Shown here: positions 607 through 59,544 of the stretch, in pieces
Position numbering within the stretch: position 1 is the first letter of the stretch
How the letters are laid out: every line of letters begins with the position of its first letter
The notes under the pieces: generated by a model
Database searches by the model: none
The model's input: the letters and a program-made list of their open reading frames with translations, nothing else
What the model was told of the DNA's origin: nothing
IMG/VR virus record: IMGVR_UViG_3300012953_000014
Location: 32,001 to 96,000 of that record
Direction: 5' to 3' (one strand)
Length of the DNA: 64,000 nucleotides
DNA from: a virus
Translations under genes and position numbers: made by a program

Positions 607-1032
607 ATGGGATTCGGTGGAGGCTTTAGCGGCGGCAAAAAAGGCGGCGGATTGAATGTGGTAAGCGGTTCCCACGGTCAAATATTACGATTTTGCTCTG
701 GCTCCGGTGCAGTAATTGGCACAGAAGAGTGGACCATTGGTGACGATGGGTGTTTTGACATTACCGGATCAATGAAAATAAAAGGTGAAGTAAGGCATTC
801 TGGCACTATCGCTTCTGAAAATGGAAGTGACAATCTCGGAACATCACAGAATAAATATGCCAACGTAAACGTCAAAGACATTCAAGCGACGAATGTATAC
901 ACTGGTGATTTACACATGAAAAATGAAAGGGGAGATTGGACTTTACACGAGGAACCCGACTGCCTAGTAGTGAGAAATAATTTAACCGGTGAAAAATTCA
1001 AACTTGTATTAGAAAAAATTGAAAAAAAATAA
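607..1032 (+). CDS. Short tail-fibre-related protein
   Basis: C-terminal NVYTGDLHMKNERGDWTLHEE..VRNNLTG module shared with the downstream fibre; Gly-rich N-terminus. Confidence 0.6.
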   Translation: MGFGGGFSGGKKGGGLNVVSGSHGQILRFCSGSGAVIGTEEWTIGDDGCFDITGSMKIKGEVRHSGTIASENGSDNLGTSQNKYANVNVKDIQATNVYTGDLHMKNERGDWTLHEEPDCLVVRNNLTGEKFKLVLEKIEKK

Positions 1033-1250
1033 TATGCCCTAAACAGCCGTTATTCCTTAAAATGGCTCAAATTAAGCAATACTACACGAATTTGTAACTT
1101 CCGAAAACAAATCGACTATCTATTTAGTTCGAAGTGCGATGGTTTATCAATAGGGTTAAACCGGGCACACTTTGGGGAAATAAACATAAAATAACTTTGG
1201 CATACTACTCAATGCAGTAGTGTGTTTGTTATTTTGGAGGATATAATACT

Positions 1251-3872
1251 ATGGCTAATTATCATGGTTTATTAAAGGGCGGATCCGGTAGTTTCGCCTC
1301 GGTCGTACTCGGTGGCAGCGGTGACTCTGCAACCGGTTATACCGTTATGAAGACATCTTCAGCTGGTAACTCGATTGACTTGGCAAACATTAACAAGTTG
1401 ACTGCTTCTTATGCTAAGATTACTGAACTTGATGTAGTAACACTTAACAGTATTACTCAAACTCAAGAAAATCTTAACGTTTCTGCTTCTTTGATTGTTG
1501 CATCTGATGGTGCGGGAGCATCTAATGAAGCTGATGGTTCTGGTCTCTACATTTCTGGTGCTAATGCATCATTAACATGGGACGACGGCAATAGCCGAAT
1601 GGCAATCAATAAATCGTTTTACGGTTCTGCGGCTGCTGAATTTGGTGGTAACGTTACTGCTGTCGGTTCATTCATTATCGGTTCTGCTGATTTGAATGAA
1701 GCTGATATGGAGAAGATTGATGGGATTACTGATGGAACTGTTGCTGCTAATAAGGCAGTAGTAGTTGATGCTAACAAAGATGCTGATGGTTTCCGTCACG
1801 TAACTTCAACTGGTGCTATCACTGCTGGTACTTCATTTATCATTGGCTCTGCTGATTTGAATGAAGCTGACATGGAAAAACTAGATGGGATTACTGATGG
1901 TGCTGTAGCAGCTTCGAAAGCAGTTGTTGTAGATTCTAACAAAGATGCTTCAGGTTTCCGTAACATAACTTTGGCTGGAATGTCTGGTTCAAGTACATTG
2001 GAAGCTGTTGGTGCGGCTACACTTGGTAGCACACTTGGAGTATCTGGTGCTGCTACATTTAGTGGTCTTATCAGCTCTAATGCTGGCGTAAAAGGTACCT
2101 CTTATAGTGGTTCAACCACATTAGAGGCTGTTGGTGCTGCTAGACTTGGTAGTACACTAAGTGTTACTGGTGCTGCTTCTTTTGCTAGCTACATCAGTGC
2201 TTCTAGTTATGTAAGTGCGTCTTCGTTTTCACTTGGTGAGAACTCAGCGACTATTGAATACAGCGATGCATTGGATTTGAGCCTTGGTTCAACCAAATAT
2301 GCTGCTCTTTCAACAGATTACTTTTCGGCGTCTGTCGAGCTTCAAGGCCCAACTGTTCACAGTTCTGGTTCTATTACTGCTGGCACCTCATTTATCATCG
2401 GTTCTGCTGATTTAAATGAAGCTGACATGGAAAAACTAGATGGGATTACTAATGGTTCTGTCGCTGCTAACAAAGCAGTGGTAGTTGACGGCAATGCTGA
2501 CGCTTCTGGTTTCCGCAATGTAACTGGCACAGGTGCTATCACCGCTGGTACTTCTTTCATTATTGGTTCTGCTGATTTGAACGAAGCTGACATGGAAAAA
2601 CTAGATGGAATTACTGACGGTGCTGGTGCGGCTAACAAGGCTCTTGTTCTTGATGGCAATGCTGATATCGCTTCTGGTCTACGTTCTTTAACTGGTTCAG
2701 GCGATCTTAAGTTTGTTAATGCTCATTTGTCAGGTGACTTATATGTTGCTGACGACCTTGAAGCTGATGCTGCTACCTTTAGTGGTCTTGTTAGTTCTAA
2801 TGCTGGTGTGAAAGGTACCTCTTATAGTGGTTCTTCTACACTCATTGCAATGGGAGCTGCGAATCTTGGTAGTACACTTGGAGTATCTGGCGCTGCAACA
2901 TTTGCAGGTAACGTTCAAACTGGTAAACTATTTGTAACCGACAAATTGAGTGGTTCAAGTGATGCAGAGTTTGTTGGTTCTGTTAAATCAATTGGCAACA
3001 TGGCATCTTCTGGTTCTATCACTGCTGGATCTTCGTTCATTATTGGCTCTGCTGATATTAACGAAACTGATCTTGAAAAGATTGACGGAATTACCAACGG
3101 TACTGTAGCGGCTGCGAAAGCAGTTGTTGTAGATTCTAATAAAGATGCTTCTGGATTCCGTAACGTAACTGCTGAAGGTTCATTTATTATCGGTTCTGCT
3201 GATTTAAATGAAACTGATATGGAGAAGATTGATGGGATTACCAATGGTGCTGGTGCAGCTAATAAGGCTCTTGTCTTAGATGCTAGTGCTGACGTTGCTT
3301 CCGGTCTACGCTCTGTAACAGGTTCAGGAGATCTTAAGTTTGTTAACGCTCACTTATCAGGTGACTTATATGTCGCTGATGATATCACTGCTGATGCTGC
3401 TACATTTAGTGGTCTTGTTTCTACGAATGCTGGTGCGAAGGGTACTTTCTTCAGTGGTTCAAGCACACTACAAGCTGTCGGTGCGGCTACCCTTGGTAGC
3501 ACATTGAATGTTTCTGGTGCTGCAACAATGAATGCTATCACAGCGACATCGGTTGCTGGTACTTCTTTCAGTGGCTCAAGCACACTACAAGCTGTTGGTG
3601 CAACTACCCTTGGTAGTACACTAAACGTTTCTGGTGCTGCTGTATTTGCTAGTACTGGTGAGTTTGGTGGTCATTTGACTCCAGGCTCCGATTCGACTTA
3701 TAACTTAGGTTCTACGGCGAAACGATGGGCTAACATTTACACAGGCGATCTCCACCTCAAGAATGAGCGTGGTAACTGGACTATCTTTGAGGAAGCTGAC
3801 CACTTGCGGGTCCGAAACAACCTCACTGGTAAGATGTACAAGATGGGTCTAACCCCACTTAGCGAAGATTAA
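1251..3872 (+). CDS. Repeat-rich tail fibre / virion fibre protein
   Basis: 873 aa, Gly/Ser/Ala/Thr-rich, two interleaved repeat types, C-terminal WANIYTGDLHL module; GGAGG RBS. Confidence 0.75.
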   Translation: MANYHGLLKGGSGSFASVVLGGSGDSATGYTVMKTSSAGNSIDLANINKLTASYAKITELDVVTLNSITQTQENLNVSASLIVASDGAGASNEADGSGLYISGANASLTWDDGNSRMAINKSFYGSAAAEFGGNVTAVGSFIIGSADLNEADMEKIDGITDGTVAANKAVVVDANKDADGFRHVTSTGAITAGTSFIIGSADLNEADMEKLDGITDGAVAASKAVVVDSNKDASGFRNITLAGMSGSSTLEAVGAATLGSTLGVSGAATFSGLISSNAGVKGTSYSGSTTLEAVGAARLGSTLSVTGAASFASYISASSYVSASSFSLGENSATIEYSDALDLSLGSTKYAALSTDYFSASVELQGPTVHSSGSITAGTSFIIGSADLNEADMEKLDGITNGSVAANKAVVVDGNADASGFRNVTGTGAITAGTSFIIGSADLNEADMEKLDGITDGAGAANKALVLDGNADIASGLRSLTGSGDLKFVNAHLSGDLYVADDLEADAATFSGLVSSNAGVKGTSYSGSSTLIAMGAANLGSTLGVSGAATFAGNVQTGKLFVTDKLSGSSDAEFVGSVKSIGNMASSGSITAGSSFIIGSADINETDLEKIDGITNGTVAAAKAVVVDSNKDASGFRNVTAEGSFIIGSADLNETDMEKIDGITNGAGAANKALVLDASADVASGLRSVTGSGDLKFVNAHLSGDLYVADDITADAATFSGLVSTNAGAKGTFFSGSSTLQAVGAATLGSTLNVSGAATMNAITATSVAGTSFSGSSTLQAVGATTLGSTLNVSGAAVFASTGEFGGHLTPGSDSTYNLGSTAKRWANIYTGDLHLKNERGNWTIFEEADHLRVRNNLTGKMYKMGLTPLSED
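1669..3650 (+). repeat. Intragenic repeats in the fibre gene
   Basis: 6 copies of SFIIGSAD(L/I)NE.D.EK.DGIT.G..AA.KA.V.D and 5 copies of SGS.TL.A.GAA.LGSTL.V.GAA; near-identical at DNA level. Confidence 0.9.
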
Positions 3873-3900
3873 TATCTACGTTAAACGTCAATAAGTGACA

Positions 3901-3945
3901 AAAAAGTCCTCCGTCCGATTTGTAATCGGGCGGGGGCATTTTTAT
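3901..3945. terminator. Bidirectional intrinsic terminator
   Basis: GTCCTCCGTCCGATT-TGT-AATCGGGCGGGGGC hairpin flanked by an A-run and a T-run, between convergent genes. Confidence 0.8.
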
Positions 3946-4148
3946 ATATTCTTTTTCAGTTTTATGATCACAACGCTTTTTGAAAATTTATTCCCGTCTT
4001 TATCTTCAAAGTTTGTTGGGCCAGCGTGCAAGAATGGTTGGTGGTCGACGACATAATACTCTTCTTTATCATCTTCTTTCAGGATGAAGACAACTTCTTC
4101 ATCGTGATATTCTTGTTTTAATCTTGATATAACTTCATCAATTCTCAT
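3942..4148 (-). CDS. Hypothetical protein (probable start MRIDEV)
   Basis: ATG at 4148 overlaps the upstream stop (ATGA coupling). Confidence 0.6.
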   Translation of the reverse strand: MRIDEVISRLKQEYHDEEVVFILKEDDKEEYYVVDHQPFLHAGPTNFEDKDGNKFSKSVVIIKLKKNI

Positions 4149-4444
4149 AAGAAATATCCCAATATAAATGAGTTTGTAACCAAAGAAGCAAAAAGAGACC
4201 AAGCCAAAAACTTTAACATTCGATCCCTTGCCCTTATTGAATCCGCCAAGATTATATATGATTCTTCGTTTTTTTGTATAATATCTTTTTCTATCCTATT
4301 CACTTCATTATCCAGTCTTTGTGAAATCTCACCAATAACTTCATTTCCAATTTTTTGTCTTTCTTGCTTATCTTTTTCTTTTTGTGCAGCTGCTTTTAAC
4401 ATTGCAGCACTATGAAAATCTCGACTAAAGCCACCTTGAGGCAT
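4145..4444 (-). CDS. Hypothetical membrane-anchored coiled-coil protein
   Basis: Charged helix followed by a C-terminal hydrophobic segment. Confidence 0.6.
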   Translation of the reverse strand: MPQGGFSRDFHSAAMLKAAAQKEKDKQERQKIGNEVIGEISQRLDNEVNRIEKDIIQKNEESYIILADSIRARDRMLKFLAWSLFASLVTNSFILGYFL

Positions 4445-4872
4445 TATCCTACTCCTTGTGAACCGCTCCAGTTATGAAACAGTTCTTTTGCGTCAATACT
4501 TGTTAAACCTGCAACAATGGATGCTGTGGCGTTTAAAGAGCCACCAGTTGGACTGACTCTCATATAAACTTCCTTGACTCTCCAATCGGCAGAATAAGAT
4601 TCTTGATTTGATAAAATAACCCAATTGTTATTTTCCGCTCCATTAACTCCATTTTGGGAAAACCCTACTCTCATATCCACTTCATTTGAACCATCAGGTC
4701 CAGAATTTTTTATGGTGATAAAGCGGGTTACGTTTGGTAAACTGATTTTTACAACCGTATTATCAGATGGAATATCGATTGATGATGATAAATAAGGTTG
4801 CGCACTTGCTTGGTACGATCCAACATTACCTACGCCCGCTCTATGATCAAAATATTGTTTAGCTACTGTCAA
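4444..4872 (-). CDS. Putative virion protein, paralog of the triplet at 37975-39229
   Basis: GVGNVGSYQ..IVAGLT..NWSGSQGVG motifs shared with the three head-module paralogs. Confidence 0.7.
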   Translation of the reverse strand: MTVAKQYFDHRAGVGNVGSYQASAQPYLSSSIDIPSDNTVVKISLPNVTRFITIKNSGPDGSNEVDMRVGFSQNGVNGAENNNWVILSNQESYSADWRVKEVYMRVSPTGGSLNATASIVAGLTSIDAKELFHNWSGSQGVG

Positions 4873-4893
4873 AATAAAAATTTCCTTCTTATA

Positions 4894-6763: not shown

Positions 6764-6781
6764 TAAGAACTATAAATAACT

Positions 6782-7105
6782 TTACTTCTTGCACCGATGT
6801 AGAGGCTCAAGCTTTTCTCTTATTTTTTTAGCCATTTCAAAGTTTTTAGCAGTTACAGACTTCAGCTCGCCGAAGACAAACTCTCTGTTTTCAGAATAAT
6901 TTTGCTCATCTAAAAGAACCTTTATCCCTTCACTCCTGGCGCAAACATCATTAAAGTCTGGTACAATGAATGAAATCATCTCTTGTTTTATTGGGTCATC
7001 ATCGCACAACGCAGCTGCATTGCGCAACTCGACGCTAGATTCTACAAACTCTGTACACATATTTATAAATTCAAATAACTCAAGCTCTGTCATAATCGTC
7101 CTCAT
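6782..7105 (-). CDS. Hypothetical protein
   Basis: ORF packed into the operon; start uncertain. Confidence 0.6.
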   Translation of the reverse strand: MRTIMTELELFEFINMCTEFVESSVELRNAAALCDDDPIKQEMISFIVPDFNDVCARSEGIKVLLDEQNYSENREFVFGELKSVTAKNFEMAKKIREKLEPLHRCKK

Positions 7106-7433
7106 ATCTTATTATGTCATCTTCTCCGAAGTAATCTCCAGTTTGAACCTCAACAAAAATCAGTTTCTTTTTACCCGTGCATTCAATGCGATGTCTCGAT
7201 TCTTTAGGGATAAAGAAAGAGCGACCAGGATAACAATCTAGCCCCTGATCTTCAAGGGTAACAATGCCTTCACCCTGAACAATAACCCAAATTTCTGATC
7301 TTCTGTGGTGTGACTGATAGCTCAGTCTTTGGCCTGGATTAACGACAATCTCTTTTAGTTTATAGTTTTTTCGATCTTGCAGAATTTCAAACGTTCCCCA
7401 AGGTCGCTCTTCAATGTTTTTTTGTTTCTTCAT
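7080..7433 (-). CDS. Mannose-6-phosphate isomerase type II cupin domain
   Basis: ERPWG..VNPGQRLSYQSHHRRSE.W..HRI..EVQTGDYFGEDDIIRYEDDY signature. Confidence 0.9.
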   Translation of the reverse strand: MKKQKNIEERPWGTFEILQDRKNYKLKEIVVNPGQRLSYQSHHRRSEIWVIVQGEGIVTLEDQGLDCYPGRSFFIPKESRHRIECTGKKKLIFVEVQTGDYFGEDDIIRYEDDYDRA

Positions 7434-8127: not shown

Positions 8128-8135
8128 TTAATGAC

Positions 8136-9210: not shown

Positions 9211-9219
9211 ATTTTCTCC

Positions 9220-11082: not shown

Positions 11083-11108
11083 ACATATCTTCTCCTTGGT
11101 TCATTATA

Positions 11109-13538: not shown

Positions 13539-14345
13539 TTATTCCTCACTGGATAGTTTATCGATGATACTCTCTATGATTTCGATTGTTTCATCAGTTG
13601 TTTTAACTTCAAATGCTCTTTCTGGGTTTGTTTCTTTGATTTTGTCATAAAGTGGTTTATCATTACCATCTTTGGCAGTACACCGATCTCCAATGAACCA
13701 AGGAGTGAGATTCCCACAATGATTTAGGGCGTATGTTTTGTCCCAACCTTTTGGATATATATCAATAGATGTGTTACCACCCATAGAGAAAGATAAAATA
13801 TTCGAAAGGTTGGTTGCTCGAAGAAGTTCTAAATTGTGTTGCCTTATTCCGTGGCGACGATCATATTCTATAAACTTTTTACGATCCTCATCATTTGCCA
13901 ATCGACCAACGGGGCACCAGTTTAATAGCGAACCTCGATAAGATATAAAGTGTCCCGTAGCAGGAAACTTCTTGTACTCTTTCATTAGTGTATAGTAAAG
14001 CCGCTCGGACAACATATACATCAAAAATCGAAATTTGTCTTCTCCAATATGCTCTCTCATATCCAATGAAGACTCTTTTCTCCATTTATCTCTTTCCCAC
14101 TCCGACTTGTCCCAAACATATTTCTGGGTTCCATTGCAGGGCATGATAGTAAAATCTGACAAATCCCTATTTGACTTCAAAAACGCGCCGCATTGCTGCA
14201 TAACATAATCATATCCACTGCCAGTGACAATACCAACTTTGGCAACCTTTGACAGCTCCAATAATGCATCTTGCATTTGTGGCTCCATAGGTTTTCGGGC
14301 TGGTGTTAGAGTTCCATCCATGTCAAATAAGATAATGTTATCCAT
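13539..14345 (-). CDS. HAD-family phosphomannomutase (PMM1/2, Sec53 type)
   Basis: LFDMDGTLTPAR, IVTGS, FISYRGSLLNWCPVGR, GGNTSIDIYPKGWDKTYAL, FIGD..GND. Confidence 0.88.
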   Translation of the reverse strand: MDNIILFDMDGTLTPARKPMEPQMQDALLELSKVAKVGIVTGSGYDYVMQQCGAFLKSNRDLSDFTIMPCNGTQKYVWDKSEWERDKWRKESSLDMREHIGEDKFRFLMYMLSERLYYTLMKEYKKFPATGHFISYRGSLLNWCPVGRLANDEDRKKFIEYDRRHGIRQHNLELLRATNLSNILSFSMGGNTSIDIYPKGWDKTYALNHCGNLTPWFIGDRCTAKDGNDKPLYDKIKETNPERAFEVKTTDETIEIIESIIDKLSSEE

Positions 14346-28331: not shown

Positions 28332-28892
28332 TTATAATAAGTCAGCAGATACCGCATTAGAAGGTAGCTTGCCGCGACCTTTAAACTGACTAATGGCGTT
28401 ATCATACCGCAAGGTGATTTCAACGTTCAAAAGATCTTCTGAATCATAATCTAAATCACCAAAATTGACATCTTTAATCCATGGATTGTGAAGCTTCCAT
28501 GCTTCGACATTCTTACCTTCAGAATCAATCTGGCGAATGATGACTGAACTCATTGCACCAACAGACAACTCTTTCGAGATTGTGGAGGTAACTCCCTCAC
28601 TCACTGGTGTTCTGTAGCCGGAGGCTTCAAGGATTTCCATCACTGCTGCCGATGCATTATCAACTGGGTCGACAACATCAACAATAGTGAAGTTAACTTC
28701 ATTCCACGTTAGTTTACCAGGATAGTAAAAAGTATGATTCAGGAACTTGTGCTCGCTTTCACTAATCGAGAAAGATGGTTTTGTTACCTTCTTGATTAAA
28801 AAGTTTTTTACTGCTGTATTAGCACCCACAACACTCATCAAAAATCGATAAGATCTCTTTGGTTGTATTTTTGCGTCATTCCAAAATGTCAT
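28332..28892 (-). CDS. Tail tube protein (gp19-like)
   Basis: PKRSYRF, YYPGKLTW, WKL..WIKDVNFGDLDY, ITLRYD; follows the sheath gene. Confidence 0.88.
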   Translation of the reverse strand: MTFWNDAKIQPKRSYRFLMSVVGANTAVKNFLIKKVTKPSFSISESEHKFLNHTFYYPGKLTWNEVNFTIVDVVDPVDNASAAVMEILEASGYRTPVSEGVTSTISKELSVGAMSSVIIRQIDSEGKNVEAWKLHNPWIKDVNFGDLDYDSEDLLNVEITLRYDNAISQFKGRGKLPSNAVSADLL

Positions 28893-28936: not shown

Positions 28937-31900
28937 TTAGTCCTCAAATGAGGCTCCGGTTCTTGTAATAATGAAGTCAATCGCAATAAACTCAATAGCT
29001 CTTGCAGGTTTGAGATAAATCTTCGCATACAAAATGTTTCTATCAACCAAATCTGGTGTGGTTGTTGTCTCATCAAGGATTATTCGGTAATCCATCAAGC
29101 CTTGTCCAGCAACAATGCTGTCTAGGAATGGGCCAACCTGTCCAGTAAAACGATCCCATGTCGATTGAACATTTTGTTCGAACAACAATCTGGATGCAAT
29201 GAATGAAACTTGACGCTTAACCAGAATCAATAGTCTTCTGACGTTGATTCTGTCCAGTGCAGATGGGGTCACTTGCAAGGTCTTCTGTCCGAAGATTACA
29301 ATGCCTTCCGCTGGGAATTGTGCGATTGGGTTAATGTTTGCTCCGTATAAATCATCTCGATCTTTTGAGCGCAATCGTTGTTTAACACCAGTCACTGGAA
29401 TGCCAGCAGCACCTTCGCTTAGTCCGCCGCGAGTAAACCCGGCTGGCGCAAACCAAACATCAGATTTTGCTTGAGCACTAGAAAGAGTTCCGAGTGCAAC
29501 AACCGATGGAGGAACAAAAATGTTTCTTCCACTATCGCGGTCGCGAACTTGAACGAACGGGTAATATGCGGCTGCATAACTCGTGTTCAACGCTCGGGAT
29601 TCAAGGTTACTGATTGTTGTATCAACATCACCTTTTCGGTCAGCTTCTGTTTGATTGCTCAAACCTTCGGCTGGTGGCGTATAATCGCCAGCCAAATCGA
29701 TGATTGCCAAAGCATCTGCTCTGTTTTCACATGTAGAAATCATATGGTCTTGAGCAGGGGTTGATGTGATACCTGGCATTGCAATCATGTTCATTTGAAC
29801 ATCTTCTGGGTCTGCCACTACATCAACTGCCATCTTGACCGAGTTCATTGCATAGCTTGTTAATTCTGTCTTACCGGAAGCAAGAGCGCGAGTATTATTA
29901 AATGGTTCGGCTTCTTGGATATTAAGTCCGTCGAAACCGCCGATAAGTGGCATTGTGAACTTATCAAATCCATTATCAAGAACAGTCTTATAACCGCTAC
30001 TGCCTGTTGAAGTCATAGAAGAACCACTCCAGAACGCAGCAGTAGTAGCACCGCCTTTTCCTTGATGAGAACCTGAAAGCCATACTGCAATCGTTCCACT
30101 ACCATGACCTGATGTTCCTGTTAGGCAAAGATCATCAAGTGTGAACAAGTATGAGTATTCGAGACCTCCATCATTTGTTGTAGCTCCATTATTTGTTGGT
30201 ATTGAAACCGCACTTGAATATCCATCTTGTGCTGAAATACCGCTTGGGAATGCTCTTACTAGATCCTGATAGGACTCGTCATATCGGGAAAAGTCATTTG
30301 GTCTACTTGTGGAAGATCCAAAGTAAGCATCTTGATTGCTATTTAAACTACCTTGACTTGAACTGTCTCTTATCGTAATAGATGGGAAGAATACTGATGC
30401 AGAAATTTTGCTAGCATCTGTCCAAGCAAATGAAGAAGTTGATTGAGGAAAATGTCTAAATGATTTTTCAGATCCAGTTGAAGGAACAAAACCAGACCAG
30501 TTCTCTGTACCTTGACGGCCTTCGAGGTCATCGGCACCACCGGCAAGACGTGATTTGATATAAGAGCCACTGAAGAAGGAATAACCTTTCCACCGAACAG
30601 GTCCATAGAAACCAAATGGTAAGAACGCTGCATTGGTTTTTGCGGTCTCAACGGCAGAGTTCATCTCAACTCTAATATATTTTGAGTTTGCCGCATAACC
30701 TCCATAGGTACGATATTCTCTCTTTGTATCATCAAACTCGACATATTGATCGCCAATCTTTCTTGCAATAAAGTTTGGAGAATTTGGATCCAAGTTGCAC
30801 ATCGTAAACTGTTCTACGATTTGTGGAGCTTCATCGACATCTCGTGCAAGTCTTACTTGGACTGTAAATGTTCCGTACTCATCAAACTGATTTGTTGGTC
30901 CTCTAATGTCTGCAATAGAAATCTTGAGATTTTGAGCTTCCCAAGCACCGGCATTGTGAGTTACAAACCTAAATAGTTTTTGTTGATTTTGCGGCTGAAA
31001 ACTACCTGTCGCACCAAAATTCTGGGCAAAGGTCCAGCCAGTTCTTGCATTAGCAGTACTTCTCAGGTGTTCGTTTTGTGTAGCCGAGGCTGAAATTAAT
31101 GGCGCTGTATAAGCGTAAAAAGTGTCTGTATTGATGTACTTATCAACCATGCTTTCAAAAGATTCGCCCAAGAAATAGGTTTTTGCTGTGCCACCAACAC
31201 TTGTTTCATCGTTTGTTAATGTTGGGTTTGTGTTGAATGCTCTTCGGATAAAGTTCTTGCTAGTTCGGCTAAAGTTAAATAAAATACTTCGGTCACCATC
31301 ACTACCGGTTAAGCCCTGTTCGGCGCTTGTTTCTTTTCCAGCGCCTGCGCCGATGATGTTTGCTCTTATGTTGCCATTCGAGTCGGATTGAACCACGACA
31401 TTAGCGCCTGAAACAGCATTGCCGCCGTTTTCTGCAATACTCTTACCAGCAACCTCAACGGTTCCAGTCACACAATAAAAAACTGCGGCCAAGGTTCCTG
31501 TGAGTTGAGTGGTTCCGCTTCCTGAAGGAAGTAGGAATAGCCCGATGCCTCCGCCTGGTCCTTGAGTAGTCGGAGCAGAACCAATCTTCCAACCAGCAGC
31601 ACCTTCTGCTTGTGTTGTGCCAGCATTTGTGTGTGCTTTGCCAAGAAGTCTAACGTAAGTGATTGGTGTACTGTTCCGCAAATAGGCTTCTGCTGCGTAT
31701 GTTCCGTATGCGGGAGATAGAACATCAGGACCATCTCTCCATGGATCCCGGCCAGAGTTACCTGGTACTGGGTTTCCAAAAATTTCTACAAAATCAGACA
31801 TCGAGTCTACTTGAACAGCTCGAAGTCCTGGTCCTCTATTTGCGCGACCGATGATGACTGGTCCTACATCTGCGGGGGTATCTGGTAGTTGAGAGTTGTC

Positions 31901-31954
31901 GATTTCTGCAACTTTAACTCCAGGGGATACAAATCTAAACTTATTGATTGGCAT
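28937..31954 (-). CDS. Contractile tail sheath protein (gp18-like)
   Basis: FVSPGV..EID, WFAPAGFTRG, INPIA.F, GQKTLQ..SALDRINVRRL. Confidence 0.95.
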   Translation of the reverse strand: MPINKFRFVSPGVKVAEIDNSQLPDTPADVGPVIIGRANRGPGLRAVQVDSMSDFVEIFGNPVPGNSGRDPWRDGPDVLSPAYGTYAAEAYLRNSTPITYVRLLGKAHTNAGTTQAEGAAGWKIGSAPTTQGPGGGIGLFLLPSGSGTTQLTGTLAAVFYCVTGTVEVAGKSIAENGGNAVSGANVVVQSDSNGNIRANIIGAGAGKETSAEQGLTGSDGDRSILFNFSRTSKNFIRRAFNTNPTLTNDETSVGGTAKTYFLGESFESMVDKYINTDTFYAYTAPLISASATQNEHLRSTANARTGWTFAQNFGATGSFQPQNQQKLFRFVTHNAGAWEAQNLKISIADIRGPTNQFDEYGTFTVQVRLARDVDEAPQIVEQFTMCNLDPNSPNFIARKIGDQYVEFDDTKREYRTYGGYAANSKYIRVEMNSAVETAKTNAAFLPFGFYGPVRWKGYSFFSGSYIKSRLAGGADDLEGRQGTENWSGFVPSTGSEKSFRHFPQSTSSFAWTDASKISASVFFPSITIRDSSSQGSLNSNQDAYFGSSTSRPNDFSRYDESYQDLVRAFPSGISAQDGYSSAVSIPTNNGATTNDGGLEYSYLFTLDDLCLTGTSGHGSGTIAVWLSGSHQGKGGATTAAFWSGSSMTSTGSSGYKTVLDNGFDKFTMPLIGGFDGLNIQEAEPFNNTRALASGKTELTSYAMNSVKMAVDVVADPEDVQMNMIAMPGITSTPAQDHMISTCENRADALAIIDLAGDYTPPAEGLSNQTEADRKGDVDTTISNLESRALNTSYAAAYYPFVQVRDRDSGRNIFVPPSVVALGTLSSAQAKSDVWFAPAGFTRGGLSEGAAGIPVTGVKQRLRSKDRDDLYGANINPIAQFPAEGIVIFGQKTLQVTPSALDRINVRRLLILVKRQVSFIASRLLFEQNVQSTWDRFTGQVGPFLDSIVAGQGLMDYRIILDETTTTPDLVDRNILYAKIYLKPARAIEFIAIDFIITRTGASFED

Positions 31955-33420: not shown

Positions 33421-34737
33421 TTATCCTACGATTATATTCAGTGGAACTCCGATCTGTATTCTGTTTGAAGCATCAACAGTGTCTGCATCTTTACTTGCCA
33501 AGGATGAATATGTCAACTCATCAAGAAGTGTCTTTAGATCTTCCTTAAGCGCGGATTGTTCATCTTTTGCCTGAGACATGAGTTCTGAAGCATTTAATGT
33601 GATATCGTTGCCCGGTATTGGTATTGATCCGAATTTTCCACGCACTTGAGCTAGCATCTCTTTTGAAACAGCTAGGGCGTACTTTCGAATCCATTGTTTG
33701 CCCATGCTATTTATATTTTGGTATGGTATGTTCGCAAATGGTAAAGTGTTATAGTTGTTTACTCCATTAACACCATCTTTGCGATCAGAACTTCCGGTTG
33801 AATAAGAGTCTGTTCTAACAGCAAACTCAAACCAAATTTTTGTTGGAGCACCTGTTCCTGGCTCTGCTGGTGGTGGATATACTCTGATTCTGTTATCTCT
33901 TATCTCATATGAATAATGAGAAGCCCGAGTATAAATATTTGTCTCATATGCCATGGCCTGGGCCTTGTTTTGCCATGTTGGTACCAACTCAAAGGTCGAA
34001 TCATCAGAGTATTGACCATAACTTTGCAGGTTCCCTACAACATTCAATCCTCCATAATATGCATAAAATCTCCACATAGCTCGTGGAGATCTATAATAAA
34101 CTCTTTTTATTTCAATTCTTTTATTATCAACTTTGTTTGCGAAGTCTTGGCCCATCTCTGAGCCGTCCGTTGAAGCATCTTGCACAACCTCTTGCAGATC
34201 ATAATCTTGCTTATCATTAATAAGAGTGATTGATGCTGAATAGATTCGTGCGTCTCCCATGGCCGCTTCAGTTGATAAACCGCTTGCGACTCGCTTACTT
34301 GCTTCGAATGTAAACTTAGGATATTTTAATGAGGCTTGGGTTCCCAATAAACTGGAAGATAACTCACCAGACTTTAAAATACCATCTTGGTCAAAGGTAC
34401 CAGTTGGTGAGCCAAGAAAGTCTGATAAGACATTTTTTGCCTGATGGCTGTTGATTATATAACAGTATTCTAGTGTCGCTATTTCATAAGAAGAATATAC
34501 ATTATTTTCTGTTATCTCAACATCAAGTACGTCACCACCGAGCATCTTGTAGGTAAAAGATACTTGATCAACTGCTCCCGAAATCCAACCCACAGAGTAC
34601 AAAGCACTTCCGGTATTCGCATACAATCCATACGGTAATGATGACGAAGGTGGGAAATTTCCACTAGCATGTGTGCCTGTTACTGGCAATATAATGGAGC
34701 TAGTGACGCTTTGTGGGGTTAGGTTTGGTGCAGCCAT
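33421..34737 (-). CDS. Neck / head-tail adaptor (gp13-like)
   Basis: LGGDVLDVEIT, WIRKYALA..KE.L..VRGKF..IPG..ITLN. Confidence 0.75.
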   Translation of the reverse strand: MAAPNLTPQSVTSSIILPVTGTHASGNFPPSSSLPYGLYANTGSALYSVGWISGAVDQVSFTYKMLGGDVLDVEITENNVYSSYEIATLEYCYIINSHQAKNVLSDFLGSPTGTFDQDGILKSGELSSSLLGTQASLKYPKFTFEASKRVASGLSTEAAMGDARIYSASITLINDKQDYDLQEVVQDASTDGSEMGQDFANKVDNKRIEIKRVYYRSPRAMWRFYAYYGGLNVVGNLQSYGQYSDDSTFELVPTWQNKAQAMAYETNIYTRASHYSYEIRDNRIRVYPPPAEPGTGAPTKIWFEFAVRTDSYSTGSSDRKDGVNGVNNYNTLPFANIPYQNINSMGKQWIRKYALAVSKEMLAQVRGKFGSIPIPGNDITLNASELMSQAKDEQSALKEDLKTLLDELTYSSLASKDADTVDASNRIQIGVPLNIIVG

Positions 34738-37974: not shown

Positions 37975-38385
37975 CTAACCAACTCCAAGCGACCCAGACC
38001 AGTTATTGATGATAGACCCGGTTGGTATGTTTGTTAATCCGGCAACGATATCAAACGGTATAGTAGCACTTGCTGGTCTTTTATAATAAAGTTTGGTTAC
38101 TTTTAAATAAAAAATATTGCCTGCACCCTCATTTATAACATTTGAAGATAAAGATTGAAAATAATTGTTTGTATCCATACCGTTTTCAGAAAAAGAAATT
38201 AGTGGGCCGTCCGACGTTCTGTCTGTGCTTAGATTTCTTATGTGAATCCAATTTGTTACGTATGGAAACTCAATAACTCTAACAACGTTATCAGCCGATA
38301 AGCTACCTCTAAAAAATGGCTGTCCTGAAACTTGATATGATCCAACATCACCTAATGCCGGTCGGCCTGGAGTGTAAATTCCCAT
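37975..38385 (-). CDS. Putative virion protein, paralog 3
   Basis: LGDVGSYQVSG..IEFPYVT..AGLT..NWSGSLGVG. Confidence 0.7.
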   Translation of the reverse strand: MGIYTPGRPALGDVGSYQVSGQPFFRGSLSADNVVRVIEFPYVTNWIHIRNLSTDRTSDGPLISFSENGMDTNNYFQSLSSNVINEGAGNIFYLKVTKLYYKRPASATIPFDIVAGLTNIPTGSIINNWSGSLGVG

Positions 38386-38813
38386 TATCCTACTCCCGTG
38401 GATCCAGACCAGTTGTCCAATATTGAACTAGTGTGAATACCAGTTAAACCAGCGAGCACCTCAACATTGTCTGAAGATCCTGTTAAATATAATCTTGTTA
38501 ATTTAAGTTCTAATCGAGGGGTTTGACCATCGCGCAAACCTGGTGCTCCTGTATAGTTGTCATTGACTCTAAAATAGTTGTCATTTTTAAGACCAACTTC
38601 AGAGACTCCTACCTTAATTTGCTTAGAGTTATCGCTTGAATTTCCAAAGTTTTTAACAATAATCCACCTTGTAACATTTGGAAACTCAATAACTAATGGC
38701 GTATCATCTGGTTGGGATGACAAGTCAATACTGGCAGACACGAATGGAACACCAGATACTCGATAAGACCCAACATTTCCTAAGCCGGGTGAATTTGGAT
38801 CATATCCTGGCAC
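38385..38813 (-). CDS. Putative virion protein, paralog 2 (probable GTG start at 38813)
   Basis: GTG overlaps the upstream TAG; length then matches its paralogs; same motifs. Confidence 0.7.
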   Translation of the reverse strand: MPGYDPNSPGLGNVGSYRVSGVPFVSASIDLSSQPDDTPLVIEFPNVTRWIIVKNFGNSSDNSKQIKVGVSEVGLKNDNYFRVNDNYTGAPGLRDGQTPRLELKLTRLYLTGSSDNVEVLAGLTGIHTSSILDNWSGSTGVG

Positions 38814-39229
38814 TAACCAACTCCAAGTGACCCTGACCAGTTGTCGGGAATAGAGCTTGTTTGAATTCCTGTTAAACCTGCAATAACATCGCAGTTTGTG
38901 CAAGCCCCTGTAAGATATAGTCGCGCTGTTTTGAGTTCCAATCGCGCAGTCATAGTGTCGCCATAATCATTTGCATCTCTTGAGACTGTAAAGTAGTTAC
39001 TCCCATTCAATCCAAGATGTGAAAAAGATACTTTAACGTCACCATCTGATGTGGTATCATGATTTGTGACTGTAATCCATCTTGTTACATACGGAAACTC
39101 AATGACCAATGGTGTGTTATCTGGTTGTGACGATAAGTCAATACCGCCTGATGCGAACGGAACACCGGAAACTTGATATGATCCGACATTTCCTAATCCT
39201 GGTGGTCCGTAGTTAAATCTATTTGACAT
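38813..39229 (-). CDS. Putative virion protein, paralog 1
   Basis: GLGNVGSYQVSG..NWSGSLGVG; preceded by ACTATTTA and GAGG. Confidence 0.7.
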   Translation of the reverse strand: MSNRFNYGPPGLGNVGSYQVSGVPFASGGIDLSSQPDNTPLVIEFPYVTRWITVTNHDTTSDGDVKVSFSHLGLNGSNYFTVSRDANDYGDTMTARLELKTARLYLTGACTNCDVIAGLTGIQTSSIPDNWSGSLGVG

Positions 39230-50014: not shown

Positions 50015-50028
50015 AAAAAACCTATAAC

Positions 50029-50385: not shown

Positions 50386-50397
50386 TTTTTTTATTCC

Positions 50398-50595: not shown

Positions 50596-50597
50596 GA

Positions 50598-50840: not shown

Positions 50841-50875
50841 AATATATCACCTCCTTATAAATAGTTTCTTTTTTA

Positions 50876-54019: not shown

Positions 54020-54027
54020 ATAATATG

Positions 54028-54056
54028 ATTATATTATATTATTGAACTAATGTCAA
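54028..54056 (-). promoter_or_regulatory. Perfect sigma70 consensus promoter
   Basis: TTGACA-17 nt-TATAAT ending 8 nt before the ATG at 54019. Confidence 0.85.
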
Positions 54057-54064
54057 GGAGAAAA

Positions 54065-54445: not shown

Positions 54446-54466
54446 TTGTATTATCCTTTGTGTGTT

Positions 54467-54562
54467 TTAGCAACAACCTTTTTCGCATTGGCAGCAACCA
54501 CAACAACAACAACAGTGTTTACTATCAAACACTTTAATCAGTTTATGTAAAAAATTTTTCAC
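54467..54562 (-). CDS. Cys-rich 31-aa peptide (metallothionein-like)
   Basis: GGGGGTG RBS, GTG start, MKNFLHKLIKVFDSKHCCCCCGCCQCEKGCC; ACTATTTA element upstream. Confidence 0.6.
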   Translation of the reverse strand: MKNFLHKLIKVFDSKHCCCCCGCCQCEKGCC

Positions 54563-54631
54563 TTCATCACCCCCGTTAAAATGATTGATTCTCCAATAAA
54601 TAGTTCCAAGCACGAAGAAAAGTTTATATTA

Positions 54632-55384: not shown

Positions 55385-55398
55385 TATCTTCCCAAACC

Positions 55399-56310
55399 TT
55401 AATAGTAAAACTTCTCCAATAAGTAGCTGTCTAAAGAAAGAAAAGTGGCAGCTTTCTTGCGAGTCTGGAATGTTTCCTTATCCATCTCTCCAACATCTCC
55501 AAAACCCGAAGTATCAACCCTGTAAACATCCACGCCATATGACATAAATAGTTGGCTTATTTTATCTTGTTTTGCTCTTGCATCAGAATCCAATGCGATA
55601 TATACCTTGTCACAGTTATTCACAATCTTTTGAAAAATATAACTATTTTCACGCAACGTAGAGCCAAGAAGAGGAATCGCATTGCCAGCCACGATTGCAT
55701 CGAAGGCACCTTCAACAATAGTTACGTCCTGGGTCCAATCCAAATATAATTCATTAAATATGAAATCTTTCTCGGCAGGCGGGTTTTTATATTTTTGCCA
55801 CTCGCCGGGTGCATAAGATCTAGCAACAAAATAATTTATATTTCCATCCAAACCAAAAGAAGGGATTATAAGTCTTTTAGAATAAGGACCATCAGGGCAA
55901 TAACCAATCTTCCACCACACTAAATCATCTCTTGTCAGGTTTCTACCCTTAAGATATCTTCTCGCCTCCAACGATAAAGGTTTGGCCTGTTTTCCTGTTA
56001 GTGTCATAAACTCATCAGGTAATGTGACGGCAATTTTTTCCTCTTTATTTTCGTCTTTAGAAAAATCAACTACTCCGGCGATTGATTTCCATTGAGATTT
56101 ATTTTCAGGGCTTCCATAAGAATATACTAACTTGGAAACATCTTTTCCGACGTAATCACAAATCCAACACTTAAAAACATTCTTATCAAAGTTTATTGAA
56201 AGCTTTCTTCTGTGGTGTTTACATTTGGGACAATGAAAAAGAAACTCGTCTTTGGTCTTATAGAAAGAGCCCAAGAAATCTTTTATTATTCTAAGTTTTC
56301 TTTCAGACAT
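55399..56310 (-). CDS. DNA primase (gp61/DnaG-like)
   Basis: CPKC..CWIC Zn finger, KYKNP, TOPRIM VEGAFDA, LDSD, DVGEM. Confidence 0.9.
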   Translation of the reverse strand: MSERKLRIIKDFLGSFYKTKDEFLFHCPKCKHHRRKLSINFDKNVFKCWICDYVGKDVSKLVYSYGSPENKSQWKSIAGVVDFSKDENKEEKIAVTLPDEFMTLTGKQAKPLSLEARRYLKGRNLTRDDLVWWKIGYCPDGPYSKRLIIPSFGLDGNINYFVARSYAPGEWQKYKNPPAEKDFIFNELYLDWTQDVTIVEGAFDAIVAGNAIPLLGSTLRENSYIFQKIVNNCDKVYIALDSDARAKQDKISQLFMSYGVDVYRVDTSGFGDVGEMDKETFQTRKKAATFLSLDSYLLEKFYY

Positions 56311-56813
56311 GCTAAACCTGCGCGGGCCATAACCAATGCATCTGCCTGATCGTAATATTTTGGTTTTGGATTTCCATGCTTTGTATATTCTACACGAAAG
56401 TCGGGTTCGTTGTCAAGAAAAAATTTCATAACCACTTCTTTAGCTTTTTGGCCACGAGTAATGGTAATCCCGCACTTCTTTCTTGCTGATATTGCTGGGA
56501 TAAACTCTGGTTTAAGTCCGAACTCCTCATAACACATCCAGGTTGTTATGCCATTAAATTTAATTAATGTTGAAATTGTATGAGAAGAGGATTTACCCGC
56601 CATAAACATGTTGAGGGCAGGTTCTATGAAAATGTGATCAATGGGATAATCTATTTCTTTTAGTTTTTCTTTAATAAATAAAGATTTAGAAAATATGTCT
56701 GGGAAATGTCTTTTGTTTCTCATATCCCAACTGCCGACTTCCATCGCCTTGCCTTTAAGATCGACGATGGCATATCCGGTGATTGATGTTGAAATGTCTA
56801 AGCCAAGAATCAT
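56286..56813 (-). CDS. RuvC-like Holliday junction resolvase
   Basis: ILGLDISTSITG, FIE, DQADA. Confidence 0.8.
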   Translation of the reverse strand: MILGLDISTSITGYAIVDLKGKAMEVGSWDMRNKRHFPDIFSKSLFIKEKLKEIDYPIDHIFIEPALNMFMAGKSSSHTISTLIKFNGITTWMCYEEFGLKPEFIPAISARKKCGITITRGQKAKEVVMKFFLDNEPDFRVEYTKHGNPKPKYYDQADALVMARAGLACLKENLE

Positions 56814-57163
56814 TAAATATTCACTTCTTCATAGCCATACTCACGACCGACTGTCAGACCCCTGATCTTGTTCAGACCTGGGATTAAGACATCATTGTAG
56901 TATGCTCGTGGATCTTTCCCACGAGGAAGAACGAAGCGAATGGTGTATTCAGCAACAAATGTTTGTTCAGTGGATGAAATCTCGTCACCTCTGGTTGCAG
57001 TTGTTACGTTGGGAATGGCTCTCATGTCATCCATGACAACAGTTCGATCAATGTCCTTTGCTTGAACAATTGACATCGTAAACTCGGCCATATATTTTTT
57101 TAACAGTTTGTCTTCGGATTCATTAACAAACTTTCGCCATTTATTAAATTCGTTTTTCATCAC
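56813..57163 (-). CDS. Hypothetical protein
   Basis: 116-aa ORF right after a CTATTTA element. Confidence 0.65.
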   Translation of the reverse strand: MMKNEFNKWRKFVNESEDKLLKKYMAEFTMSIVQAKDIDRTVVMDDMRAIPNVTTATRGDEISSTEQTFVAEYTIRFVLPRGKDPRAYYNDVLIPGLNKIRGLTVGREYGYEEVNI

Positions 57164-57184
57164 TATAAATAGAATATTATTGTA

Positions 57185-58402
57185 TCAAAAATCTAACTTT
57201 AATTTAAATGTTAAATCATCGATTTCTCGTTTCCTTATTGGTGTCGCAAGCTTAGCTATTGCGATTAAATTTTTATTGTCATCGTATATACCAATCTTAC
57301 TGATATATGTTGTCTTTTCAAAGTCTGCGCTGCCAGAAGACCCGCTGTAAGGACTTTTTGTGATATTTTTGATTGAAAGACCGGGATTCTCTCTGTATGC
57401 AAATGAGCTGCTATAAGCTGGGCCGAGTGAACCAGATTGCCCATACTCAACAAATGTCGGATTGTTTGATTGGTTTAAGTGGCCCTTACGAGCGTGCGCT
57501 AACATTGTTACGTTCGGAACAAAGTTGGTCCCACTAAATGACATATCAAAACTGGAATATACTGCTGAAGATCCTGTTTGTCCAAAATAAACCCATCGAG
57601 GATTGTCTGCACCTACTGAAGATTCATATGTTTCAACATGTGGAGAGCCGGACTTTGTTTCAACAAGCCAAGAGCCAGTTAACATGATGATTCCATCGTT
57701 ATATAAAACAACACCAGCGATCTTGTTGGCGTTTGTACCAGAACCAGTAACACGCAGAACACCATCTTTATAGCGATCTGTTACTTCTTCCTGCACGGTT
57801 CCTGACAAAAGATATTTTAACGAGACTGTTCCTTTTTGAATTGATGAACCATAATAAATTGATGGTATATCAATAAAGCGCATTTGTTGTCGCCCTTTGT
57901 CCCAACCTTCACCCAGTGTTGAACTTAAAGCATAATAAGGACTATAAACATTATAGTTGAATAAAATATTTTCCAAAGCACCAAAAAAAGAACCTGAGCG
58001 CCTGTTTGCCGTTTTGGTTGGCGAGTTTCTGTCTATCCCAGAACCTGAAAAGGCCGGATAATAGAAAGAAGAAATACTGGAGGACATGGGGTATGAGCTT
58101 GAAAAAATATGCCCATAATCTTGTTCGTTGTAAGAAGCGGTGGTTGTTGACTTAAATGTGGTTTGATTTGAACCTTTCGACAGAAATGGGTAAATCAGAA
58201 AAGAATCTGAACGATTTACATTATATTCATAAAGATTGACACAACCAACCGGAACACCAGAAGCGGAATCAGAATATGTTCCAGCTTCACCAACATGATT
58301 GTTCAGGTAAACTGAACCCGTATAGATAAAAAGATCAACTTGAGGATGAGTCTTTAGTTGATTATAGAATACATCATTTCTACCAAATTTATAAAACGAC
58401 AT
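57185..58402 (-). CDS. Putative baseplate/tail structural protein
   Basis: C-terminal YISKIGIYDDNKNLIAIAKL..P..K..KLKLDF domain shared with its neighbour. Confidence 0.6.
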   Translation of the reverse strand: MSFYKFGRNDVFYNQLKTHPQVDLFIYTGSVYLNNHVGEAGTYSDSASGVPVGCVNLYEYNVNRSDSFLIYPFLSKGSNQTTFKSTTTASYNEQDYGHIFSSSYPMSSSISSFYYPAFSGSGIDRNSPTKTANRRSGSFFGALENILFNYNVYSPYYALSSTLGEGWDKGRQQMRFIDIPSIYYGSSIQKGTVSLKYLLSGTVQEEVTDRYKDGVLRVTGSGTNANKIAGVVLYNDGIIMLTGSWLVETKSGSPHVETYESSVGADNPRWVYFGQTGSSAVYSSFDMSFSGTNFVPNVTMLAHARKGHLNQSNNPTFVEYGQSGSLGPAYSSSFAYRENPGLSIKNITKSPYSGSSGSADFEKTTYISKIGIYDDNKNLIAIAKLATPIRKREIDDLTFKLKLDF

Positions 58403-58425
58403 AACTGTAACTAAATAGTCGTGTT

Positions 58426-59544
58426 TTAATAATCAAGTCTTACGCGGATTGTCATCTCATTAGATGGATCCTTCTTAAGTGGCTCAGAAAGTTTTGCCAC
58501 CGCCAAAAGTTCATTATCTGGAGAATACAGACCAACTGTTGTAATGTACGATACAGGTGCATCAAGTTGATTGTTTTTAACACGAATCTTACTGCTGCTC
58601 AAGTAAGTTGGGTTTGCGCTGTAGTTAAACTCATTGTTGTTAGCGCGACAGAAATAAACTGAGGAGTTTAGTTCTGTTGTGTTATTGAAACTAACATTAT
58701 AAATTCTGTGCCTGATTGCATCACAACTAGCGGATATCGAAGAACCTGTCAGTTGAGCATTCATGTCTGGGCCAGTGGTTGAACCGGTGTTTGCGCCAAG
58801 ACCCAACATAACCATACTGCCGGATGCTCCAGCACCAGATTTACCATAAGCTTGGAAAATGCCTCCACTCAAAACTGCGACTCCAGCTTGATAGAACAGT
58901 AGACCAACTTTTGTATCCAGCGGCATGGTAGAACCAGAGCCATATAAGATAGAATATTCACCAGTAGGTGAGTTTACCAAATAGCTGGCTGTTGCTTTTG
59001 TGTCAGTAATCGTGATAAGATCTTGAAACTCAGAACCAACACTAGCCGAAGCATAAGATGCGCTCGCACCAAGCTTTAAACTAAACGAACCTTTTTTGAT
59101 TTCATCTTTTGACAGCAGTCTTGAAAAGTTTAAGAAAACACATTCTTTTAGTTTTGTGCCTCCGCTTGTTACATCACCGTCTTCGTCAAACTGTAAAATG
59201 TTTCCTGATGCATCGTGGCCTTGTAAGACCGCTGCCATTTGATTATAAATATTAATCTTTTTGGCGTTTTGGACATTTGTCGAGGAAGATAGCGCGGATC
59301 CCGTAGAATATCCCAAAGTAACATCAAAAATGTGATTTGCTGAAGAACTTAAATATGGGTAATCATAAACACTCTGGAACATACCATGTGAGTAGTTTTT
59401 GATATTCGGCTCGCTTCCGAGCGCAATCGTTGAACCGCCATATGTTCCAGAAACAATAGCTCCTGTAACCGGGATTGATTCGTGAAGGAGTGTTCTTGTA
59501 CTCGTTCGGTCGTTGTTTGTTAATGTTTTAAAAATTGTTGCCAT
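58426..59544 (-). CDS. Putative baseplate/tail structural protein
   Basis: C-terminal YITTVGLY..NELLAVAKLSEPLKK..RVRLDY. Confidence 0.6.
   Translation of the reverse strand: MATIFKTLTNNDRTSTRTLLHESIPVTGAIVSGTYGGSTIALGSEPNIKNYSHGMFQSVYDYPYLSSSANHIFDVTLGYSTGSALSSSTNVQNAKKINIYNQMAAVLQGHDASGNILQFDEDGDVTSGGTKLKECVFLNFSRLLSKDEIKKGSFSLKLGASASYASASVGSEFQDLITITDTKATASYLVNSPTGEYSILYGSGSTMPLDTKVGLLFYQAGVAVLSGGIFQAYGKSGAGASGSMVMLGLGANTGSTTGPDMNAQLTGSSISASCDAIRHRIYNVSFNNTTELNSSVYFCRANNNEFNYSANPTYLSSSKIRVKNNQLDAPVSYITTVGLYSPDNELLAVAKLSEPLKKDPSNEMTIRVRLDY

Follow-up and report, generated by a model that had tools for sequence, protein, structure and literature searches.

The window examined here is a stretch of 64,000 nucleotides, bases 32001-96000 of a 156,635-bp IMG/VR virus record (IMGVR_UViG_3300012953_000014; genome G000) whose completeness is estimated at ~71%. 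It holds sheath, capsid, baseplate and fibre genes of a T4-like phage together with two genes of mannose metabolism (Table 1). Our subject is the tripeptide Ser-Gly-Ser or Thr-Gly-Ser ([ST]-G-S), which recurs in several of the virion proteins and which a sequence-only reading of the window had proposed as an acceptor site for O-glycosylation or another modification of the particle. We translated 67 open reading frames (ORFs) in the window and tallied [ST]GS against 2000 shuffles per protein. Genome-wide tripeptide expectations were computed from the composition of each protein itself. Gene sets followed a simple longest-ORF rule and include a few spurious ORFs, such as an S-G-T-S low-complexity frame in Microcystis phage Mel-JY01. 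The same pipeline was used throughout for the comparison set, which comprised the IMG/VR relatives G002-G009, the cultured phages immuto, Mel-JY01 and RM378, and others.

Pfam matches to a gp23-type capsid protein and a sheath identify G000 as a T4-like myovirus, aquatic and uncultured. It also encodes a T4-type baseplate protein and a gp15-like sheath stabiliser. The cultured phages nearest to it in capsid similarity are Flavobacterium phage vB_FspM_immuto (47%), Microcystis phage Mel-JY01 (46%) and then, at 40%, Rhodothermus phage RM378, with ordinary T4-like phages below 31%. A megablast search with 20 kb of G000 returned no cultured phage matching by DNA similarity.

Table 1. Features discussed in the text. 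Positions are those of the window unless marked as genome positions; the last column gives [ST]GS sites seen vs expected.
Feature	Position	Strand	Family match or basis	Sites seen vs expected
141-aa Gly-rich protein upstream of fibre	607..1032	+		3 vs 0.2 (p = 0.0025; contexts unique)
873-aa repeat-rich fibre-like protein	1251..3872	+		11 vs 3.4
Fourth small paralog ending NWSGSxGVG	4444..4872	-	Alignment	
117-aa cupin-type mannose-6-phosphate isomerase domain	7080..7433	-	PF01050, 111.7 bits (genome 39098-39427 = window 7098-7427)	
Eukaryotic-type phosphomannomutase (would supply mannose-1-phosphate)	13539..14345	-	Pfam PMM (PF03332), E = 5e-32	
Tail sheath	28937..31954	-	Pfam Phage_sheath_1C and Phage_sheath_1 at residues 711-996	8 vs 1.6
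gp13-like head-tail adaptor	33421..34737	-	phrog_211, head-tail adaptor Ad2	2 vs 0.57 (not significant alone)
gp23-type major capsid protein, 606 aa	34852..36672	-	Pfam Gp23, E = 2.5e-68	4 vs 0.8
Three small paralogs ending NWSGSxGVG	37975..39229 (37975-38385, 38385-38903, 38813-39229)	-	Alignment	
405-aa protein, baseplate/tail-fibre module	57185..58402	-		10 vs 1.1 (densest carrier)
372-aa protein, distant paralog of 405-aa protein	58426..59544	-		5 vs 1.0
3269-aa protein	Beyond window end			32 vs 4.4 (contexts unique)
536-aa protein	Beyond window end			9 vs 1.06 (contexts unique)
Glycosyltransferase family 4 (GT4) protein, 425-type, 425 aa	Genome 144920-146197, outside window		Glycos_transf_1, 22.6 bits (below cut-off of 26.4)	
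GT4 protein, 466-type, 466 aa	Genome 146176-147576, outside window		Glycos_transf_1, 42.7 bits (cut-off 26.4)	

Excess of [ST]-G-S in three structural modules

Across the proteome of the whole 156.6-kb genome, TGS ranked first (47 seen vs 15.8 expected, z 7.8) and SGS second (58 vs 22.4, z 7.5) among ~8000 tripeptides. We split G000 by position into modules and found the enrichment limited to three structural ones: the fibre pair (14 sites seen vs 3.6 expected), the block from sheath to capsid (18 vs 3.9), and the baseplate and fibre module (59 vs 13.9, P = 2.5e-19). All other modules together, which cover replication, metabolism and glycan genes, held 14 sites with 15.2 expected. Within the baseplate module only 4 of 14 proteins showed an excess. 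The strongest carriers of the genome, the 3269-aa and 536-aa proteins, lie outside the window. Inside it, the by-eye counts of the sequence-only reading (10, 5, 8, 11, 3 and 4 sites) were all exact on recount. The same was true of its statement that the 1047-aa protein, DnaB helicase, portal, terminase, scaffold and tape measure have no sites, the last two genes being assigned by position.

The excess is real and specific for the residue at each position. Before GS, Thr was enriched 3.0 times and Ser 2.6 times, and no other residue was enriched; between Ser or Thr and Ser, Gly far exceeded Ala and Ser; and in the third position Ser exceeded Thr. Direction mattered, with SGT at 23 vs 15.8 expected, SSG at 20 vs 22.4 and AGS at 11 vs 17.3. 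Variants SAS, SSS and SGT, which had also been described as frequent, were raised, but by just 1.4-1.7 times. The flanks of the motif had no consensus beyond a mild hydrophobic preference at -1, +4 and +5. Codons at the sites were mixed, with both TCN and AGY for Ser, all four Gly codons and no dominant DNA word, and therefore selection acts at the protein level. Other tripeptides were over-represented as well, including CDG (13 vs 2.4 in G000 and 10 vs 1.2 in G004), EEV (43 vs 16.6 in G000), and ENW and NWR in G004 and G009.

Several features of the data could have produced such an excess artefactually through Ser/Gly-rich composition, internal repeats or ORF calling. The carriers are rich in Ser, Gly and Thr. 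About nine of the 11 sites in the fibre-like protein fall in three internally repeated contexts, giving ~5 independent contexts vs 3.4 expected, and the WSGS termini of the four small paralogs are homologous. Relative to a first-order dipeptide (Markov) expectation, the excess falls to ~1.4 times (SGS 58 vs 41.5; TGS 47 vs 31.4) because the dipeptides SG, TG and GS are themselves enriched. However, whole-protein shuffles did not reproduce the counts, and neither did shuffles within blocks of 15 or 30 residues, which keep local composition: the eight richest proteins, a post hoc choice, held 82 sites vs ~16.5 expected. A 2x2 test on all x-G-y triplets, which is independent of that choice, put the odds ratio at 4.0 for the structural modules (p = 1e-16) and at 0.68 for the others. 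Moreover, the sites of the 3269-, 536- and 405-aa proteins lie in unique contexts, and negative controls in the same pipeline showed nothing. Composition, repeats and ORF calling are thus largely refuted as the main cause, and we regard an artefact as very improbable. Not every protein stands on its own, since the capsid excess taken alone is weak (p = 0.006 by whole-protein shuffle, 0.014 by block shuffle).

The carriers had been described as mutually unrelated and the motif as convergent. This holds for most of them but not for the four small paralogs, the internal repeats of the fibre-like protein or the pair of 405- and 372-aa proteins. The small paralogs (~135 aa) do all end in WSGS as stated. 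Because their C-terminal NWSGSxGVG is invariant in the alignment, these termini represent one motif inherited by duplication rather than convergence. Three of the four are located between the gene in the scaffold position and the prohead protease, and the called start of 38385-38903 seems ~30 codons too long. Most carriers matched nothing in Pfam and PHROGs, including the 141-aa protein. The 405-aa protein likewise had no match in either, and its AlphaFold2 (AF2) model found no PDB match at E <= 0.001 with Foldseek. Its immuto homologs, gp105 and gp106, sit between baseplate wedge and tail-fibre genes, and phmmer links the 372-aa protein to both. No homolog of the 873-aa fibre-like protein was found in the relatives examined.

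Distribution, placement and turnover of sites

The motif is shared with relatives of G000. SGS or TGS was the top tripeptide in G002, G003, G006, G008 and immuto; enrichment was clear in G004, RM378 and Mel-JY01 and weaker in G005, G007 and G009. Yersinia phage TG1, which is T4-like, showed no enrichment genome-wide (odds ratio 1.23, not significant), nor did Paraglaciecola GD1, two marine T4-like fragments or Tetrasphaera TJE1, and in the uncultured jumbo phage LR756508 (484 kb) there was essentially none (odds ratio 1.16, not significant). Tetrasphaera TJE1 combines one distant glycosyltransferase homolog with a lack of enrichment and was set aside as uninformative. The positive cultured phages infect Flavobacterium, Microcystis and Rhodothermus, that is, Bacteroidota, Cyanobacteria and Rhodothermota, and a reader of the motif is therefore likelier to be encoded by the phage than to be specific to a host.

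Mel-JY01 additionally has extreme S-G-T-S repeats (L051:635-3052 and nearby), which lead its ranking (SGT 93 vs 20.8 expected, TSG 84, GTS 82). They are distinct from the [ST]GS sites dispersed over its baseplate proteins. The long plus-strand ORF in this region disagrees with the deposited annotation and could be spurious.

Sites in the G000 tail sheath occupy residues 144-650, all N-terminal of the conserved Pfam core. When five sheath orthologs were pooled, none of their 30 sites lay in the C-terminal 295 aa (P = 6e-6). The C-terminal domain of T4 gp18 makes up the inner sheath layer, with the remaining domains facing outward. The four capsid sites (residues 161, 179, 241 and 259) fall inside an insertion region, as had been noted, and this region does not align to the immuto capsid. 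In the AF2 model of the 405-aa protein, which was built from a 52-sequence alignment and has a mean local confidence (pLDDT) of 69, all ten sites are placed in coil or turn, some of them between strands. The tail tube (28332-28892) has no [ST]GS sites, and the portal and gp6-like wedge have none in every genome compared. Judged by domain location in the sheath orthologs and by modeled secondary structure, these results suggest an outward placement of the sites, in coils or turns, in agreement with the exposed location first proposed.

The positions of the sites are far less conserved than their density. Among orthologs at 42-60% identity, most site columns were filled in one sequence only (15 of 17 columns in the sheath and 19 of 24 in the 405-aa family), and each ortholog was still several-fold enriched. 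Orthologs of the 372-aa protein had 1-5 sites each, mostly in different columns. In 120 metagenomic homologs of the 405-aa protein, drawn from a family of ~2900, we counted 674 sites vs 87 expected, and every homolog had at least two. Variable columns held near-motifs (TSS, TAS, SAS or SGT) or unrelated residues in place of TGS or SGS. Near-invariant columns were few; one example, at residue 242, reads TGS-W in 50 of 52 homologs of the 405-aa family. Since density is kept while positions move, selection appears to act on the number of exposed sites and not on a fold requirement. Turnover at constant density, as judged from these alignments, suggests a surface sequon rather than a fold requirement.

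The same observations bear on the alternative that [ST]-G-S is never modified and merely reflects a structural preference of the lineage for a tight turn or a flexible hydrophilic loop in beta-rich outer domains. The modeled placement of all mapped sites in coil or turn, some of them between strands, would fit this explanation, as would the hydrophobic residues at -1, +4 and +5 and the few nearly invariant columns. However, other turn-forming triplets were not enriched: DGS, NGS, SGN and SGD were near expectation, and AGS was below it. Orthologous folds in negative phages also do without the motif. In LR756508, the proteins orthologous to the sheath and to the 405-, 372- and 536-aa proteins have 0, 0, 3 and 0 sites, respectively, and the orthologous sheath and baseplate proteins of the T4-like phage compared have none. 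Because similar turn formers are unenriched, negative-phage folds lack the motif and most positions turn over between orthologs, we consider a plain beta-turn preference unlikely, though it keeps appreciable weight.

Sugar enzymes and glycosyltransferases

The sequence-only reading had supposed that sugar enzymes in the window feed the modification by making GDP-mannose. This was borne out in part. A phosphomannomutase and a small cupin-type mannose-6-phosphate isomerase are present, but an NTP_transferase-type guanylyltransferase was not detected and the main machinery is outside the window. The phosphomannomutase belongs to the eukaryotic PMM family and not to the bacterial PGM/PMM type, and it is embedded in replication genes (5'-3' exonuclease and RecA).

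A search of the rest of the genome for glycosyltransferases, which had been suggested as a check, recovered many soluble ones in a glycan island of 22 co-oriented genes (genome 126945-147576; L006:445-19697 and L007:6176-7576). Its nucleotide-sugar enzymes include a GDP-mannose dehydratase, several epimerases and reductases, and a fusion of a PseF-like cytidylyltransferase with a cupin. There are class III and DegT aminotransferases, a SIS protein, an AroB-related cyclising enzyme and a split transketolase. The transferases comprise two PF01973 (Maf-like) proteins, a GT29-like protein, a GT2, two CgeB-like proteins (Glyco_trans_1_2) and two GT4s. None of the 22 island proteins has a membrane segment, and Pfam scans of the island turned up no lipid-linked priming or export families. 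The absence of membrane machinery from the island fits a cytoplasmic acceptor. One part of the island is unusual in combining the AroB-related enzyme (TIGR04425, above cut-off), the class III aminotransferase, the SIS protein, a short-chain dehydrogenase/reductase (SDR), the PseF-like cytidylyltransferase-cupin, the GT29-like protein and both Maf-like proteins. This combination suggests a CMP-activated non-standard sugar, and among the relatives examined the module is specific to G000.

The island is otherwise variable. Only the two adjacent GT4 genes and an adjoining PD-(D/E)XK nuclease are conserved in G002-G005, immuto (where the pair is gp180 and gp181) and Mel-JY01. Both GT4s keep the EX7E motif (E-G-F-G-L-x-x-x-E) across G000, G002-G005 and immuto, and the 425-type occurs at no fewer than 590 loci in IMG/VR (at least 590). 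In RM378, a divergent, adjacent 425-type copy was found only by profile search. A profile search of LR756508 did not find the 425-type; at ~305-322 kb (L070, L071) that genome has the 466-type GT4, the GDP-mannose dehydratase, an epimerase and other sugar genes, making it a useful natural contrast.

Every GT4-pair genome examined was enriched in [ST]GS (12 of 12), and neither of the two genomes without the full pair was. The proteins common to all three cultured positives are core replication and structural proteins plus the glycosyltransferase. Single-sequence phmmer profiling isolated no gene that is in all positives but not in LR756508. Co-occurrence across relatives, another check that had been suggested, leans in favor in that the motif tracks the conserved GT4 pair in the genomes examined, possibly through very few independent events, whose number the trees do not settle.

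The two Maf-like genes were also considered as writers of the motif and were ruled out as specific to G000. One scores 39.1 bits against the PF01973 cut-off of 34.6 and the other 27.0 bits, below it, and neither matches NCBIfam. They do not track the motif, as no homologs occur in G002-G005, immuto, Mel-JY01 or RM378. G002 and G003 gave weak PF01973 matches, all below cut-off.

A candidate sequon for virion glycosylation

Some reader of the motif probably exists, to judge from its sequence patterns. The leading candidate is a soluble glycosyltransferase of the phage, since no other enzyme class was found to follow the trait. Taking the observed excess, specificity, location, turnover and lineage distribution of the motif together with the presence of soluble transferases, we infer that the motif may be modified, that the modification would be a sugar, and which residue and enzyme would be used. 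Our tentative interpretation, which we put slightly below an even chance, is that exposed loops of virion proteins are O-glycosylated at [ST]-G-S, which would serve as a short acceptor signal. The signal would tolerate Ser or Thr in the first position, Gly (less often Ala or Ser) in the second and Ser (less often Thr) in the third. Virion proteins would fold in the cytoplasm, where a soluble phage-encoded transferase, with the adjacent GT4 pair as the most plausible candidates, would add the first sugar to a Ser or Thr of the motif. Lineage-variable transferases might then extend this sugar with nucleotide sugars from the phage's GDP-, CMP- and amino-sugar enzymes. The outcome would be a glycan coat on the outer domains of the sheath, the insertion domain of the capsid, peripheral baseplate proteins and fibres. 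The O-glycosylation originally proposed fares well in sequence-level tests, but its link to an enzyme is confounded by shared ancestry.

A number of observations weigh against virion glycosylation. Literature searches returned no report of the motif or of virion glycosylation in G000 or its cultured relatives. Non-structural proteins do not avoid the motif (ratio 0.92), whereas a fully promiscuous cytoplasmic enzyme might have favored avoidance. Large presumed structural proteins of 984, 1197 and 2533 aa have no [ST]GS excess. Hydrophobic flanks and the placement of some sites at strand ends also fit a simple beta-turn preference. Among genomes with the GT4 pair, the odds ratio varies from 1.4 to 2.9. 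Finally, trees of TerL, the major capsid protein and DnaB leave the branching of LR756508 and RM378 unresolved, and the link between motif and transferase pair may be confounded by shared ancestry and very few evolutionary events. As to the large proteins, those of 2533 aa (genome 115124-122725) and 1197 aa (genome 96792-100385), both from the baseplate module, contrast sharply with the neighboring 3269-aa carrier, and the 1197-aa protein has no Pfam match.

Two further points count against a sugar on the virion and in favor of another reader. Phage glycosyltransferase clusters can also act on DNA by glycosylating it (bioRxiv 10.1101/2023.12.21.572611), and the GT4 pair adjoins the PD-(D/E)XK nuclease, with synteny kept in G000, immuto and Mel-JY01. 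The motif could accordingly be a tag for a different modification, such as phosphorylation, acylation or cross-linking, or for an assembly or decoration factor, with the island serving DNA or the host surface. Specificity, surface location and turnover reveal a reader without naming it. However, of the G000 proteins included in the sequence comparison, none from another enzyme class followed the motif. A role in DNA glycosylation also fits less well with the lack of a ThyA-type hydroxymethylase (PF00303), the usual partner of DNA-glycosylating GT-B enzymes, in the 156 kb of a record that is ~71% complete, and immuto DNA is, according to its record annotation, already modified by a 7-deazaguanine route. 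A search for TET-type dioxygenases (PF12851), which next to a C5-methyltransferase would be the alternative partner expected in a DNA-glycosylating cluster (Pyle et al.), gave no match, but neither did its controls. We consider a non-sugar reader distinctly unlikely.

Protein glycosylation by soluble enzymes has several precedents. Virion glycosylation in mycobacteriophages has reportedly been described by Freeman et al. (2023, Cell Host Microbe). There, phage-encoded glycosyltransferases decorate the phages' own virion proteins in the cell, and the glycans, which are described as a shield, are carried on the C-terminal ends of the capsid and tail-tube subunits (PMC12619734, PMC12582341). G000 resembles this system in having phage glycosyltransferases (a GT2, two Glyco_trans_1_2, two GT4s and a GT29-like protein). 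Its motif, in contrast, is a dispersed tripeptide on the sheath, baseplate, fibre and capsid insertion (residues 161-259 of 606) and is absent from the tube. Mycobacteriophages are actinobacterial siphoviruses, whereas G000 is an unrelated aquatic T4-like myovirus. Acceptor type, targets and phage lineage thus set the G000 case apart.

The best solved-structure relative of the 466-aa GT4 is B736L of chlorovirus NY-2A, likewise a GT4 encoded by a virus (3oy2, aligned over nearly the full length with E = 6e-7), although sequence similarity is weak. Chloroviruses rely on cytoplasmic enzymes of their own rather than on membrane pathways to glycosylate the capsid protein, and the known glycans are N-linked at atypical sites. 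We know of no established acceptor for B736L, and chloroviruses, unlike G000, infect eukaryotes.

In its proposed mode of action, the G000 system would resemble the cytoplasmic O-glycosylation of surface proteins by bacterial enzymes. In the GtfA/GtfB system, an adjacent cytoplasmic GT-B pair puts the first sugar on Ser in S-x-S-type motifs of a surface adhesin before export. These serine-rich-repeat substrates are long low-complexity tracts and GtfB is non-catalytic, whereas in G000 single triplets stand apart in folded domains and EX7E is retained in both GT4s. Autotransporter heptosyltransferases (Aah/AIDA-I and TibC/TibA) O-glycosylate many Ser at the turns of a beta-rich surface protein in the cytoplasm, recognizing local structure instead of a long sequon. 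They differ from the G000 GT4s in enzyme family and sugar, and no homolog of them was seen, although no search aimed at one was made. Maf enzymes O-glycosylate exposed Ser or Thr of flagellin with CMP-activated sugars. G000 does have two adjacent PF01973-like (MAF_flag10) genes beside its PseF-like cytidylyltransferase, but the encoded proteins are about half the typical length and, as noted, do not track the motif.

Extended beyond G000, the proposal is that an abundant aquatic T4-like lineage, with thousands of metagenomic members besides immuto, Mel-JY01 and RM378, coats its virions by way of an [ST]-G-S sequon that the GT4 pair would write and the variable islands would extend. We hold this broader claim more tentatively than the acceptor signal itself. 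If true, it would give tailed phages their first described system of sequon-directed protein glycosylation, with a turnover of sites like that of the glycan shields of animal viruses, and a very common group of aquatic phages would have a sugar coat that genomics has overlooked. Such a coat could alter how particles adsorb, how well they withstand proteases and grazers, how sticky they are and how much carbon they contain. It would also explain large 'auxiliary' sugar islands that have no membrane machinery, and a three-residue sequon with soluble enzymes would provide a compact tool for glyco-engineering in the bacterial cytoplasm. Because the motif and the transferase pair occur together in three cultured phages, the idea is directly testable.

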